Below, piece by piece: positions 1,992 through 6,756 of a DNA stretch of 64,000 bases. Each line of letters begins with the position of its first letter. The first letter of the stretch is position 1. Origin of the DNA: Escherichia coli (GTDB lineage Bacteria; Pseudomonadota; Gammaproteobacteria; Enterobacterales; Enterobacteriaceae); NCBI RefSeq assembly GCF_041886205.1, contig NZ_CP169029.1; one strand, 5' to 3'. A program made the translations under genes and the position numbers. The notes under the pieces are model-generated. The model had not been told where the DNA came from, did no database searches, and saw only the letters and a program-made list of their open reading frames with translations.

Positions 1992-3743
1992 TTAACTTGC
2001 CAGCTTTCTGAGTTTTTCGATGCCCGTAGGTTCTTGTGCGAATAGAGGGACCAGCGCTACACGCTTAGCATGTCGGGCCATCACCGCCTCAATTTGTGGT
2101 CGTTCCTGCGTTGCTCGCTGACACAGTAGCGACGAACGTGTATCCGCAATAGAAAGGCAGTTATTGATTATCCAGCCCCAGGGATGAATCCCTGCGCGTT
2201 CAAGATCGGCCTGCAAATTAGCCGCTTCCAGTACGGGCGTGGTTTCAGGCAGCGTAACCAGCAGCACTTTGGTGCGTTGCGGATCCTGAAGTAGCATCAT
2301 TGGCGTAGTAAAGTGACCTTTTTCGCCCATTTTTTTCGCAATTTCACGGTGATAAGCCCCGGTGGCATCCAGCAATAACAGCGTGTGACCGGTTGGCGCG
2401 GTATCCATCACCACAAAACGTTTACCCGCCTCACGGATCACGCGCGAGAACGCCTGAAATACAGCAATCTCTTCGGTGCAAGGAGAGCGTAAATCCTCTT
2501 CCAGCAGTCGTTTCCCCGCTTCATCGAGATCTTTTCCCTTTGTCTCAAGGACATGCTGGCGATAGCGCTCGGTCTCTTCCTGCGGATTGATCCTGCTGAC
2601 CTGTAGGTTGGTAAGTGTGCCGTTTAGGGTAGTGTTAATGTGGGCAGCAGGATCGGAGGTTGTAAGATGCACATCGAATCCCATATCTGCCAGGCTGACG
2701 GCGATAGCTGCGGCCATTGTGGTTTTCCCCACGCCGCCTTTTCCCATCAGCATGATCAGACCGTGTTCACTGCGGGCAATATCATTCACTAGCTCAGAGA
2801 ATGACATGTTTTCAAAGAATTGCTGGCGCATCTGGTCAGAGAGCGGTGCAGGCTCGAAACGGGTATTAAAAAGACCTTTTAATGCAGGCACGCCAACCAT
2901 GTTCACCGGTTGAAGAAAGAGGGTATCTGCTGGAATGGTCGATAAACCGGCGGGTAAATTTACCAGGGCTTCCTGCTCACGCTGAACTATTGCCATTGCT
3001 AGTGGGTCATTTTGCTGCCCGGACTCAGGCAATACGCCGTTGATCACCAGATAATGATTTTTAAGACCAATCGCTGCCAGTTCTTCATGAGTGCGAGCGA
3101 CTTCCTGCAATGTTGATTTTTGCAGGCGTGCAACCAGCACCAGGCGGGTACGCTCAGGATCGGATAATGCTTCTACCGCATCAGCGTACTGCTCACGCTG
3201 TTTTTCCAGCCCAGCCATCGGGCCAAGACAGGAGGCACCATCGGGATTACTTTCAATAAAACTGCTCCAGGCACCGGGGAGCTGCAGAAGTCGTATGGTA
3301 TGGCCCGTTGGCGCGGTATCAAAAATGATGTGATCAAAGCGGGCCAGCAGAGAGGCATCGGTCAGTAAACCGGTGAACTCATCGAACGCCGCGATCTCCG
3401 TCGTACATGCTCCCGAAAGTTGTTCGCGTATACTATTTACAACCTCCTCAGGGAGAAGTCCTTTGATAGGGTCAACGATTCTGGCCCGATACTGTTCAGC
3501 GGCTTGCTGAGGATCAATTTCCAGCGCGGACAAACCGGGAACCGCTGTCACAGGAGTAATAGCGTTACCAATAGTTTGATTAAATACCTGACCGACATTC
3601 GACGCGGGGTCGGTGCTGACAAGCAGAACCCGTTTTCCCTGTTCCGCCAGATGGATAGCAGTTGCGCAGGAAATTGACGTTTTACCTACACCTCCCTTAC
3701 CGGTAAAAAACAGATAAGGCGGGATATTCTGTAAGAATTTCAT
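1992..3743 (-). CDS. arsA: arsenite-stimulated ATPase ArsA (two homologous halves)
   Basis: ORF-track 591 aa; likely start at internal Met (MKFLQNIPPYLFFTGKGGVGKTS); two P-loops GKGGVGKT present (N- and C-half). Confidence 0.93.
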   Translation of the reverse strand: MKFLQNIPPYLFFTGKGGVGKTSISCATAIHLAEQGKRVLLVSTDPASNVGQVFNQTIGNAITPVTAVPGLSALEIDPQQAAEQYRARIVDPIKGLLPEEVVNSIREQLSGACTTEIAAFDEFTGLLTDASLLARFDHIIFDTAPTGHTIRLLQLPGAWSSFIESNPDGASCLGPMAGLEKQREQYADAVEALSDPERTRLVLVARLQKSTLQEVARTHEELAAIGLKNHYLVINGVLPESGQQNDPLAMAIVQREQEALVNLPAGLSTIPADTLFLQPVNMVGVPALKGLFNTRFEPAPLSDQMRQQFFENMSFSELVNDIARSEHGLIMLMGKGGVGKTTMAAAIAVSLADMGFDVHLTTSDPAAHINTTLNGTLTNLQVSRINPQEETERYRQHVLETKGKDLDEAGKRLLEEDLRSPCTEEIAVFQAFSRVIREAGKRFVVMDTAPTGHTLLLLDATGAYHREIAKKMGEKGHFTTPMMLLQDPQRTKVLLVTLPETTPVLEAANLQADLERAGIHPWGWIINNCLSIADTRSSLLCQRATQERPQIEAVMARHAKRVALVPLFAQEPTGIEKLRKLAS

Positions 3744-3760
3744 ATGTCCCCCTGACCGGC

Positions 3761-4123
3761 TCAACAACAGTCGGTTTTTCCGCCACAGCAGTGTGTTGGT
3801 GCCAGTCCCACCTTCTCCAGCGGGATCCCAAACCAGCGGGCTAGCTCGGCGCGTTTCGGATAACGGCCCGCCATCACGGTTTCGCCTCCCAGTAAGATCA
3901 AGGGCAATCCTTCCGCCCCGGAAGCCTCAAGAAACGCTTTCGCTTTTTCGTTTTGCACGAAACTCATCGGTTGCTGCGCGAGATTGTAACGTTCGACCTG
4001 AACACCGCGGCTTTTCAGCCATTGCACATCTGCGGAAAAATCGACCAGCACCTGATCAACATCAGAACCACAGACGCCGGTACTGCAACACATCGCCGGA
4101 TCAAACACCGTTAACGTCTTCAT
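3761..4123 (-). CDS. arsD: arsenic metallochaperone / secondary repressor ArsD
   Basis: 120-aa ORF; MKTLTVFDPAMCCSTGVCG with the Cys12-Cys13-Cys18 triad and C-terminal CC pairs. Confidence 0.92.
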   Translation of the reverse strand: MKTLTVFDPAMCCSTGVCGSDVDQVLVDFSADVQWLKSRGVQVERYNLAQQPMSFVQNEKAKAFLEASGAEGLPLILLGGETVMAGRYPKRAELARWFGIPLEKVGLAPTHCCGGKTDCC

Positions 4124-4170
4124 CTTCGATACCTCACATTCGGAAAATCATATATATCAAGTCAAATTTT

Positions 4171-4524
4171 TTAACTGCAACTTGCTTTACCGTCAGCAGA
4201 GCAGTTGGCTGCGGCCAGCTTACGGGCGATAGCCTGCACGTCGTCCAGTTGGCTTAATCTTGTTTGCTCAATAATTTTCGCCGCCCATGCTGGAATATGC
4301 GGCGATAAGCGGTAATGAACCCACTTACCCTGCTTGCGATCCAGCAATAGCCCACTTTCACGCAGCAATGCCAGGTGGCGGGAGATCTTGGGCTGCGACT
4401 GGTCGAGAGCAGTACAGAGATCGCAGACACATAACTCTCCCAGCTCGCTGAGCAGTAAAACGATGCCCAGACGGGTCTCATCAGCAAGAATTTTGAACAG
4501 TTGGATGGGTAAGAGAAATGACAT
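4171..4524 (-). CDS. arsR: ArsR/SmtB-family arsenite-responsive repressor
   Basis: 117-aa ORF with ELCVCDL metal-binding motif inside a wHTH; first gene of operon. Confidence 0.93.
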   Translation of the reverse strand: MSFLLPIQLFKILADETRLGIVLLLSELGELCVCDLCTALDQSQPKISRHLALLRESGLLLDRKQGKWVHYRLSPHIPAWAAKIIEQTRLSQLDDVQAIARKLAAANCSADGKASCS

Positions 4525-4610: not shown

Positions 4611-4671
4611 GAAGAAGGTAATAGGTGTGAATTTTGAGTTGGGTATTCATTTGAAAGGAGGTCTGAATCAG

Positions 4672-4762
4672 GACGTAAAAAAACCGACTTTGTGTCGGTT
4701 TTTTACTTCCCAGCCCTGAGTTGGTGGCTCTGGCTGGAGTGAGAGAGCTCTTATCTAACAGT
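4672..4762 (-). ncRNA. agrB: agrB-like small RNA (antisense regulator of dinQ); agrA/agrB naming by position is tentative
   Basis: ~90-bp unit with hairpin aaaaaaaccgactttgtgtcggtttttt and a stretch (ctctggctggagtgagagagctcttatctaaca) repeated in the dinQ 5' region; K-12 carries agrA/agrB here. Confidence 0.5.
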
Positions 4763-4902
4763 TCAATACTATTAGCCAGTGGCTAACATTGCAAGAATTA
4801 GCGATTTCTTCAGCTGGAGAAGGGACAGTTTGCTATACATGTTGGTGAAAGAGGATTTATATACTTTCATCGGGTCGCTGCCGTACCAAGCCTTGTCCGA
4901 AT

Positions 4903-4993
4903 CCGGATGTAAAAAAACCGACTTTGCGTCGGTTTTTTACTTTCCAGCCCTGAGTTGGTGGCTCTGACTGGAGTGAGATAGCCATCATCTAAC
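4903..4993 (-). ncRNA. agrA: agrA-like small RNA (second copy of agr repeat unit)
   Basis: Near-identical second copy of the 4672-4762 unit (hairpin aaaaaaaccgactttgcgtcggtttttt plus ctctgactggagtgagatagcc...). Confidence 0.5.
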
Positions 4994-5057
4994 GCATCAA
5001 TGCTAATACCATACTGAAACTATTGCAAGGACGTGCTGGTTTTATAACCTGCATGTA

Positions 5058-5073
5058 CTGTATGATTATCCAG
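5058..5073 (+). promoter_or_regulatory. LexA box (SOS box) in dinQ promoter
   Basis: ctgtatgattatccag fits CTG-N10-CAG LexA consensus; upstream of dinQ. Confidence 0.55.
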
Positions 5074-5266
5074 TTAGCTCTGAGGCATTTTCACTCTGGC
5101 AATGCGCATAAACGCTTTCAAAGTCCTGGTCAGAAGTACGGGTGGTGCCGTTAACTGATGCTCTGGCCGGAGTGAGAGAGTTCTTATCTAACAATGAGAC
5201 ATGCGCCGTGACAGGCAGTGGATGAGTAAGCGGATGCATTCTCACTCCATCGCATGGAGAAAACGG

Positions 5267-5350
5267 GTGATTGATAAAGCAATCATCGTTCTTGGGGCGT
5301 TAATTGCGCTGCTGGAACTGATCCGCTTTCTGCTTCAGCTTCTGAACTGA
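5267..5350 (+). CDS. dinQ: type I toxin peptide DinQ (27 aa, GTG start)
   Basis: Translation from GTG gives MIDKAIIVLGALIALLELIRFLLQLLN, a single hydrophobic helix matching DinQ; too short for the ORF track. Confidence 0.7.
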   Translation: MIDKAIIVLGALIALLELIRFLLQLLN

Positions 5351-5365
5351 TAGCGGAAACGTAAT

Positions 5366-5397
5366 TAAGGGCTAAGAGCACACTACTCTTAGCCCTT
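5366..5397. terminator. stem-loop between convergent dinQ and gor
   Basis: Inverted repeat gggctaagag...ctcttagccc directly after dinQ stop and before gor stop. Confidence 0.45.
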
Positions 5398-5403
5398 TAA
5401 CAT

Positions 5404-6756
5404 TTAACGCATGGTCACGAACTCTTCTGCCGCCGTCGGGTGAATGGCAACCGTGTTGTCGAAGTCTTTTTTGGTTGCGCCCATCTTCAGCGCCACCGCG
5501 AAGCCCTGCAACATTTCGTCCATACCAAAACCAATTCCGTGAATACCGACAATCTTCTCTTCCGGCCCAACGCACACCAGCTTCATGCGGCACGGCTGGC
5601 GGTGAGTGGTGACTGCGGTATACATCGCGGTGAAAGAGGATTTATACACTTTCACCTGATCGTCGCCGTACTGCTCGCGCGCCTGCGGTTCCGTTAAACC
5701 AACAGTACCAATCGGCGGATGGCTGAAGACCACGGTCGGAATGTTGCTGTAATCCAGATGCTCATCCGGCTTGTTATTAAACAGGCGTTCAGAGAGGCGG
5801 CGACCCGCTGCAACTGCCACCGGTGTCAGTTCTACTGCACCCGTGTTATCGCCCACCGCGTAAATACCTTCAATGTTGGTGTTTTGATATTTATCGACGA
5901 CGATATAGCCTTTTTCGTTAGTTTTAACGCCAGCGGCTTCCAGGTTGATGTTGTCATTGGCAGGCTCGCGACCAATCGCCCAAATCAGGCAATCCACCGT
6001 TTCACTGCGACCATCTTCCAGCTCCAGCGTCAGGCTACCATCGGCATTTTTCACTACCGCTTTCGGGATGGCGTTGGTGTGCAACTGCGGGCCTTCGGCG
6101 TTCATCACTTCGACCAGCGTTTCAGAGATCATCGGGTCGAAGCTGCGCAGCGGCGCATGTTTACGCACAAACAGATGCGTTTTCGCGCCGAGGCCGTTAA
6201 TCACGCCCGCCAGCTCAACGGCGATGTAACCCGCGCCAACAACAGCCACGCGCTCTGGCAAAGCAGGAAGGGCGAAGAAGCCATCAGAATCAATACCGTA
6301 TTCCACGCCTGGAATATCCGGGTGGCTCGGACGACCGCCGGTGGCGATCAGAATATGATCGGCCGTGATGGTTTCGCCGTTTACCTCCAGCGTTTTGGCA
6401 TCAACGAAGCGGGCAAAGCCTTTGATTACATCAACGTTATTTTTACCGAGCACGTTTTCATAGGAAGTATGAATACGGTCGATATAGGCGGTACGGCTGG
6501 CGATCAACGTTTCCCAGTTGAATTTATTGATAGTGGTATCAAAACCATAATCCGGGCCGTACATATGGATCGCTTCACGGATTTGCGCCGCGTGCCACAT
6601 CACTTTCTTCGGTACGCAGCCGACGTTCACGCAGGTGCCGCCCAGCTCTTTGGCTTCAATCAGTGCGCATTTCTGGCCGTACATAGCCGCGCGGTTGATG
6701 GAGGCGATACCGCCGCTGCCGCCGCCGATGGCGATGTAATCATAGTGTTTAGTCAT
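5404..6756 (-). CDS. gor: glutathione reductase
   Basis: 450-aa ORF; GGGSGG FAD motif and [10 protein letters not shown] redox-active disulfide. Confidence 0.97.

Follow-up and report, generated by a model that had tools for sequence, protein, structure and literature searches.

A K-12-like dinQ-agrAB type I toxin-antitoxin locus in Escherichia coli and the allelic variation of its three repeats

Between arsR and gor in a 64,000-nucleotide (nt) stretch of Escherichia coli DNA (NCBI RefSeq assembly GCF_041886205.1, contig NZ_CP169029.1; the whole of this stretch is called the window below) lies a set of repeats that we compare here with the dinQ-agrAB type I toxin-antitoxin locus of E. coli K-12 MG1655 (b4613, b4712 and b4713; Weel-Sneve 2013, Kristiansen 2016). 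In K-12, dinQ is repressed by LexA and its primary (+1) mRNA is not translated, and a form of the mRNA processed at its 5' end (+44) is translated from a GTG codon into a toxic inner-membrane peptide of 27 amino acids (aa) (PMC3567139, PMC5066626). The leader of this mRNA acts as a switch. Elements 1 and 2 and elements 3 and 4 are paired in the +1 form, hiding the Shine-Dalgarno (SD) sequence, and elements 2 and 3 are paired in the +44 form, leaving the SD free (PMC5066626). When the small RNA (sRNA) agrB pairs with G88-A119 of the leader, the SD hairpin closes again, translation is blocked and a substrate for RNase III is formed (PMC3567139, PMC5066626). With the second sRNA, agrA, the SD stays open and the active +44 mRNA is still translated (PMC5066626).

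Several other type I systems share parts of this plan. The SOS-induced tisB-istR-1 pair of E. coli has LexA control, a small inner-membrane toxin and a divergent, non-overlapping antitoxin sRNA gene as neighbour, and it also has an inert primary mRNA that is activated by 5' processing and a duplex that is cut by RNase III (PMC3567139). However, its sequences are unrelated to those of dinQ-agrAB and its antitoxin gene is not duplicated, and IstR-1 competes with standby ribosome binding, whereas agrB re-closes the SD hairpin. In zorO-orzO and shoB-ohsC the antitoxin gene is likewise located 5' of the toxin gene, is divergent from it and encodes an RNA that pairs with a lengthy 5' untranslated region (UTR) (T1TAdb, PMC8594479), but the sequences and toxins are unrelated and there is no LexA control. 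The DinQ-like genes dqlA and dqlB of enterobacterial chromosomes and conjugative plasmids, a family defined in PMC5066626, have a homologous leader architecture and peptide; blastn found such sequences in 2,730 plasmid records, most of these plasmids being conjugative, where the label assigned by the Prokaryotic Genome Annotation Pipeline (PGAP) is 'DinQ-like type I toxin DqlB'. These matches differ from the window locus in that nucleotide identity is about 70% over part of the leader and open reading frame (ORF), and in that their context is a plasmid and generally not arsR-gor. The window locus is a true dinQ orthologue, not dql.

With a probability of about 0.95, the element is a K-12-like allelic form of dinQ-agrAB, a chromosomal type I toxin-antitoxin locus of E. 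coli. Alignment of the arsR-gor intergenic region gives 98% identity with K-12 MG1655, with the same flanking genes, order and orientation, and 100% identity with E. coli strain 6EVA, whose RefSeq annotation has a dinQ coding sequence (CDS) at the corresponding place (WP_001295215.1). The K-12 record is annotated in the order gor, dinQ, agrA, agrB, arsR, and the window is its reverse complement, so that agrB is the unit next to arsR and agrA the unit next to dinQ. The order read along the window is thus arsR-agrB-agrA-dinQ-gor, with dinQ on one strand and the agr genes on the other. The LexA box, the +1 and +44 landmarks, the elements of the SD hairpin and the terminator are all the same as in K-12, while the differences consist of three substitutions in agrB (one of them giving an extra G:U pair), a different allele of the spacer between the agr genes, and a neighbouring ars operon that includes arsD and arsA where K-12 has arsRBC. 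Together with the Rfam AgrB and NCBIfam DinQ matches described below, the K-12 identity and synteny and the 6EVA annotation bear out the identification made in an earlier note on this DNA from its letters alone, which had called the locus dinQ with agrA and agrB.

The resemblance goes beyond function, as every defining feature of dinQ-agrAB that sequence can address is present, and on these grounds we take the locus to be dinQ-agrAB proper. It is already known and well studied, and it is ordinary for the species: among 5,426 complete E. coli genomes, the intergenic region is present in 5,422. Re-identifying it adds only that a type I system, including a 27-aa gene with a GTG start, can be recognised from raw sequence. 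What we observed ourselves are the sequence features, the family memberships and the predicted pairing and folds; transcription of agr and dinQ, processing, translation and toxicity of DinQ, and cleavage by RNase III would carry over from K-12 through the near-identity of the two loci.

The dinQ half of the locus follows K-12 closely. A LexA operator, TACTGTATGATTATCCAG, is found on the plus strand at 5056-5073 as an exact pattern match, overlapping the dinQ -10 element (TATGAT, -12 to -7) and ending at the mapped dinQ +1 (5073). Its sequence is identical to that of the K-12 operator, for which a heterology index (HI) of 4.83 has been given (PMC3567139), and the overlap with the dinQ promoter points to SOS control. 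The +1 transcript (5073-5403, plus strand, 331 nt), which should be translationally inert until its first 43 nt are removed, shows a single synonymous difference from K-12, at 5293. All of the landmarks named in PMC5066626 (G1, U44, G88, A119, G184 and GUG195) map onto the window, with +1 at 5073, U44 at 5116, G88-A119 at 5160-5191, GGAG at 5256-5259 and GUG at 5267.

On the plus strand of the leader, 'sequence 1' (U16-C28, 5088-5100) would lock the inactive fold of the +1 mRNA by pairing with the repeat core (PMC5066626). The agrB target site (G88-A119, 5160-5191) is the third copy of that core and contains 'sequence 2' (5166-5178), and 'sequence 3' (U167-U178), 'sequence 4' and the SD GGAG (5256-5259) make up a putative SD-sequestering hairpin at 5239-5259 (PMC5066626). 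These four elements are present and unchanged, and mutually exclusive leader structures are predicted by folding: in the minimum free energy (MFE) fold of +1 to +215 the 5' end pairs with 94-120 and the SD is sequestered, and the probability that the SD is unpaired is at most 0.07 in the +1 form compared with about 0.67 in the +44 form.

The dinQ CDS (5267-5350, plus strand) runs from its GTG at 5267 to a stop codon ending at 5350 and encodes (V/M)IDKAIIVLGALIALLELIRFLLQLLN, a hydrophobic peptide of 27 residues that would be a single-pass inner-membrane toxin. The peptide belongs to the NCBIfam DinQ equivalog NF041472, scoring 54 bits against a cut-off of 30; Pfam has no DinQ family model. The earlier note had placed a LexA box upstream of a 27-aa DinQ ORF, as we also find, and had described dinQ as invisible to the ORF track. 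The latter holds in so far as the gene is below the default cut-off of 60 aa and its true GTG is internal to a longer frame, but not at a minimum of 20 aa, where an ORF of 49 aa beginning with ATG (5201-5350) is listed. Translation of the dinQ peptide, on which that note had made its reading depend, has been demonstrated in K-12, where the 27 aa are read from the GTG. Downstream, a 12-nt perfect inverted repeat at 5367-5397 was matched by the terminator scan and corresponds to SL9 in PMC5066626; it is a bidirectional terminator shared by dinQ on the plus strand and gor on the minus strand.

The other half of the locus is built of repeats. A direct repeat of 114 nt (D1), with copies that are 87% identical, occupies 4661-4774 and 4895-5008 at a spacing of 234, and a core of 34 nt (D2) occurs in three copies, at 4727-4760, 4961-4994 (82%) and 5160-5193 (94%). 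When the core CTGRCYGGAGTGAGA was searched for with at most two mismatches, exactly three matches were obtained in the 64-kb window, all of them on the plus strand and all in this locus; 0.15 matches are expected by chance, and none of 100 shuffles reached three. The two near-identical units with bidirectional hairpins that had been noted earlier are therefore real, but the bounds proposed for the second of them, 4903-4993, are 3 nt out of register with the period of 234. Likewise, the third partial copy that had been placed at about 5148-5210 in the dinQ leader is sound for 5160-5193 and not firm for the remainder: upstream of 5160 a short GGTGGTG stretch alone aligns, with a gap, and the leader copy scores 22.7 bits with the Rfam AgrB model, which is under the threshold, and is not a member of that family.

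The two agr units themselves both belong to the Rfam AgrB family (RF02891, gathering score 40), each aligning on the minus strand with the whole covariance model (1-84), with 103.3 bits for agrB and 106.2 bits for agrA. The agrB antitoxin gene (4675-4758, minus strand) encodes an RNA with its 5' end at 4758 that is antisense to the dinQ leader over nt 1-32, and its paralogue, the sRNA gene agrA (4909-4992, minus strand), is a poor match to the window dinQ. The 82-nt forms annotated in K-12 correspond to 4677-4758 for agrB and 4911-4992 for agrA. Over this length agrA is identical to its K-12 counterpart (82/82), and agrB differs at three places, window 4748, 4709 and 4693. The first of these is RNA nt 11 (A>G), which would form a G:U pair with dinQ U108 and leaves the predicted energy of the core duplex unchanged, and the other two are RNA nt 50 and nt 66 (terminator loop). 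Position -4 of the agrB promoter (4762) also differs from K-12.

Taking the mapped 5' ends as reference, we read the agr promoters from the sequence that lies upstream; in K-12 the agr genes have consensus-like -10 and -35 elements (PMC3567139). The agrB promoter (4766-4794, minus strand) has the -35 element TTGCAA at 4789-4794, a 17-nt spacer and the -10 element TAGTAT at 4766-4771. The agrA promoter (5000-5028, minus strand), which stands back-to-back with that of dinQ, has TTGCAA at 5023-5028, again a 17-nt spacer, and TAGCAT at 5000-5005. The rho-independent, bidirectional terminator hairpin of agrB (4678-4704) and the corresponding bidirectional hairpin of agrA (4912-4938) consist of inverted-repeat arms and are supported by the Rfam consensus structure and the MFE fold. 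Each lies between an A-run and a T-run and could thus terminate transcription in both directions.

The pairing of each agr RNA with dinQ 5160-5191 separates the two units. Over these 32 positions agrB forms 30 Watson-Crick (WC) pairs and one G:U pair with one mismatch, and agrA forms 25 WC pairs and four G:U pairs with three mismatches; the 5' 31-32 nt or so of agrB are nearly fully complementary to the dinQ 5' UTR, and those of agrA less so. The complementarity reported for K-12 is 30/31 for agrB and 25/31 for agrA (PMC3567139). Energies were computed for the 32-nt core duplex, folding of whole-transcript duplexes having been rejected because long interior loops inflate the energies. They came to -57.0 kcal/mol for agrB and -41.5 kcal/mol for agrA, with z = -9.2 and z = -6.5, respectively, against dinucleotide shuffles. 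This agrees with the earlier note's proposal that agr RNAs from the opposite strand control dinQ mRNA by antisense pairing, which is a published and experimentally supported mechanism (PMC3567139, PMC5066626); the minus-strand transcripts that it presupposes have been detected in K-12, where three laboratories, using northern blot, primer extension and RNA-seq, observed both agr sRNAs (PMC3567139, PMC5389530, PMC4681348). The two agr units are not equivalent: agrB (4675-4758) is the effective antitoxin, and agrA (4909-4992) leaves +44 translation unblocked in K-12.

Transferred to the window, the K-12 mechanism would run as follows. DNA damage would take LexA off the operator at 5056-5073 and allow dinQ to be transcribed from 5073. 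The full-length mRNA would be untranslatable, its 5' end (5088-5100) pairing with the core at 5166-5178 while the SD stays locked in its hairpin. Removal of the first 43 nt would give the +44 mRNA, in which the core would pair with 5239-5250, the SD would be freed and DinQ would be made from the GTG at 5267. A constitutive agrB transcript of the minus strand, from 4758 to about 4677, would then pair through its first 32 nt with 5160-5191, re-closing the SD hairpin and providing an RNase III substrate, and synthesis of DinQ would be blocked. The agrA RNA (4992 to about 4911) would be a paralogue with too many mismatches to the window dinQ allele to play the same role.

A further property of the pairing region is its variation between strains. 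The duplex includes a polymorphic patch of 8 nt (dinQ 5178-5185, agrB 4745-4752 and agrA 4979-4986 in the window), which co-varies between dinQ and one agr copy. Its E. coli alleles number at least five: GAGTTCTT, ATGCCATT, TAGTCGTC, ATGCCCAC and ATACCATT. The dinQ patch is GAGTTCTT in 1,680 genomes (the type of the window and of K-12), ATGCCATT in 1,922, TAGTCGTC in 418 and ATGCCCAC in 283, with rarer alleles besides. Each isolate genome examined has one or more agr copies whose patch matches that of its own dinQ. Across 16 distinct isolate haplotypes, the dinQ leader pairs with its own agr set at a mean of -56.8 kcal/mol and with the agr sets of other genomes at -50.7 kcal/mol, and none of 10,000 permutations reached the observed value. 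The position of the cognate copy is variable as well, being distal in four and proximal (the agrA position) in five of nine complete genomes with two agr genes; it is distal in K-12 and the window, and proximal in E69, JL05, EC93, P19_598 and O157:H7. The patch of agrA in K-12 and the window, TAGCCATC, is that of the sole agr in strains of the TAGTCGTC type, and an agr with TAGCCATC forms 29-30 WC pairs and two G:U pairs with one mismatch against a TAGTCGTC dinQ, at -56.4 kcal/mol.

We tentatively suggest, at somewhat less than even odds, that the three repeats form a polymorphic lock-and-key set and not a working antitoxin beside a decayed copy, that recombination between them has in addition produced single-agr and hybrid loci, and that the two-agr state came about through a 785-bp duplication. 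The patch and structural variation, the hybrid allele and the duplication are undescribed in the papers that could be searched; the one remark in T1TAdb is that some strains have AgrA, and the partner chosen there is the most stable one (PMC8594479). The conclusion drawn from K-12 that agrA is a degenerate, non-functional copy is possibly strain-specific, and the natural allele pairs are a ready specificity series for the mismatch tolerance of antisense antitoxins. For the type I toxin-antitoxin field, this population-level variation is a modest lead.

Some points weigh against our reading of the locus. The evidence for expression comes from K-12 and would apply to the window strain by analogy. 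The agr and dinQ promoters, which agree at 8 of 12 positions where the threshold is 9, were missed in a simple promoter scan, and the agr hairpins were not flagged by the terminator scan, probably because their A/T extensions absorb the T-tail. The three substitutions of agrB relative to K-12 include one in the antisense stretch, yet this one replaces A:U with G:U at an equal predicted energy. Finally, the matching of dinQ and agr within genomes could be explained by gene conversion between direct repeats and not by selection for pairing.

Among other explanations, it is possible, if on balance improbable, that agrA has not decayed but is an intact antitoxin allele whose cognate target is another dinQ allele, and that the agr genes are alternative 'keys' shuffled among the three repeats by recombination or gene conversion. 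The good match of the sole TAGCCATC agr in strains with the TAGTCGTC dinQ patch argues for this, as do the better match of the agrA-position copy in five of the nine two-agr complete genomes and the intact promoter, terminator and Rfam score of agrA itself. However, support from allele pairs beyond K-12 is read from sequence, the same pattern could come from neutral gene conversion and unequal crossover, and the 64-kb window, in which the core occurs three times only, holds no well-matched target for agrA.

It is very doubtful that both agr RNAs are equivalent, redundant antitoxins of the window dinQ, as the earlier note's words on control by agr RNAs would mean if taken literally. Each unit does match the full AgrB model and has a promoter and a terminator, and in K-12 full-length dinQ mRNA is lowered by both sRNAs (PMC3567139), but the agrA duplex, with its three mismatches and four G:U pairs in 32 nt, is 15.5 kcal/mol weaker. 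In addition, K-12 agrA, which is identical to that of the window, as is the K-12 dinQ leader, neither closes the SD nor inhibits translation of the +44 mRNA (PMC5066626), and its deletion causes no sensitivity to ultraviolet (UV) light (PMC3567139). That the units are relics of duplication that have no part in RNA regulation and only terminate transcription in both directions, or insulate, between the ars operon and gor might be thought from the strong bidirectional hairpin in each and from a gor relic in the spacer that points to a history of duplication, but this is already refuted by the K-12 experiments, in which discrete sRNAs with mapped 5' ends arise from both units (PMC3567139, PMC5389530, PMC4681348) and deletion of agrB gives a dinQ-dependent phenotype, and the 32-nt complementarity to dinQ is maintained within genomes across alleles.

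Returning to the lock-and-key suggestion, the number of repeats also differs among E. coli strains. A probe for the agrB-agrA spacer, which marks loci with two agr genes, matches 3,806 complete genomes, about 1,108 with the window type of spacer and 2,687 with the K-12 type. A probe for the dinQ promoter matches 4,610, so that about 800 genomes would have one agr. Single-agr loci without the 234-bp unit and the gor relic were seen in four complete E. coli genomes (L003, L004, L119 and L120), in E. albertii (L007) and in Escherichia sp. E1V33 (L013). This form is either ancestral or the result of unequal crossover between agrB and agrA, and we do not choose between the two.

In about 812 complete genomes the dinQ promoter is missing, the stretch between one agr unit and the repeat in the dinQ leader having been deleted, and a 40-mer spanning the agr/dinQ hybrid junction is present in 813 of the 5,426 (about 15%). 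What is lost comprises the promoters of agr and dinQ, the LexA boxes and leader nt 1-87, and the ORF is intact. From its sequence, this collapsed allele is apparently an intact but promoterless dinQ ORF behind a bidirectional terminator, and in about 15% of sequenced E. coli dinQ would thus apparently be silent. A simple promoter and terminator scan of the collapsed allele found nothing, which is weak evidence of silence because the scan is insensitive. An example of this allele is seen in E. coli JCM 5491 (L005, 700-960).

A single, poorly matched agr was also found on ten metagenome contigs with at least 700 nt upstream, eight of which have a K-12-type dinQ with an agrA-like unit alone (L019, L032, L057, L059, L068, L083, L091 and L094). 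These eight were considered as natural strains without agrB and rejected: the best match to a complete genome is 98% and has a different dinQ patch, and the contigs are probably assembly collapses of the 234-bp repeat. A 1-kb contig (CAAFJI010000131.1) from a metagenome-assembled genome labelled Lachnospiraceae carries an E. coli-type dinQ-agr locus and is likely a binning contaminant. A pattern scan for the leader structure in both collections did not recover the dql genes and is uninformative on the wider family; its chance matches (for example in Natrialbaceae, Thermophagus and Bacteroidetes) were dropped, as no DinQ start lay downstream.

The spacer between agrB and agrA in the window is a different allele from that of K-12 and preserves better a relic of gor. 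This fragment (4834-4886, minus strand, 53 nt) is 83% identical to 5619-5671, an internal stretch of gor, and has the same orientation as gor, and its translation is comparable to Gor over 18 residues. Local alignment scores were 61 compared with a shuffle maximum of 26, and 35 compared with 21. In the K-12 spacer the similarity to gor reaches about 25 nt further left and is gapped, and the two spacer alleles retain different gor residues, as expected if one relic had decayed independently in each. At its right end the relic comes to within about 8 nt of the agrA unit's left edge, and its distance from gor is 785 nt, which fits a tandem duplication of 785 bp comprising agr, dinQ and the 3' part of gor, followed by a deletion of about 550 bp that would have removed the extra dinQ. 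E. whittamii has two agr genes and the relic, like the window; in E. albertii and Escherichia sp. E1V33 there is a single agr and the relic is absent. No mention of the relic was found in the two dinQ papers (PMC3567139, PMC5066626). The idea that the relic might give an agr read-through RNA antisense to gor was rejected, as the relic is sense relative to gor.

In some strains PGAP has annotated 'hypothetical protein' CDSs on the minus strand (548-763 in locus L006 and 605-778 in L120), which overlie the agrB promoter, gor relic and agrA region or the dinQ leader. These CDSs over the agr and dinQ non-coding RNA genes are probably spurious ORFs.

The dinQ/agr duplex contains a single C:A mismatch, between dinQ C96 (5168) and agr positions 4735 and 4969. 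This mismatch (GGCCGG in dinQ, GGCTGG in agr) is conserved in nearly all of the loci examined, the exceptions being the distal agr of E. whittamii and the dinQ of Escherichia sp. E1V33. Its retention might be relevant to cleavage by RNase III or to limiting recombination.

In the neighbourhood of the locus, the ars operon of the window (1992-4524) has arsD (3761-4123) and arsA (1992-3767) downstream of arsR. In XJ34, JCM 5491 and Q5, arsC instead of arsR abuts the dinQ locus, and the arrangement or orientation of the ars genes differs.

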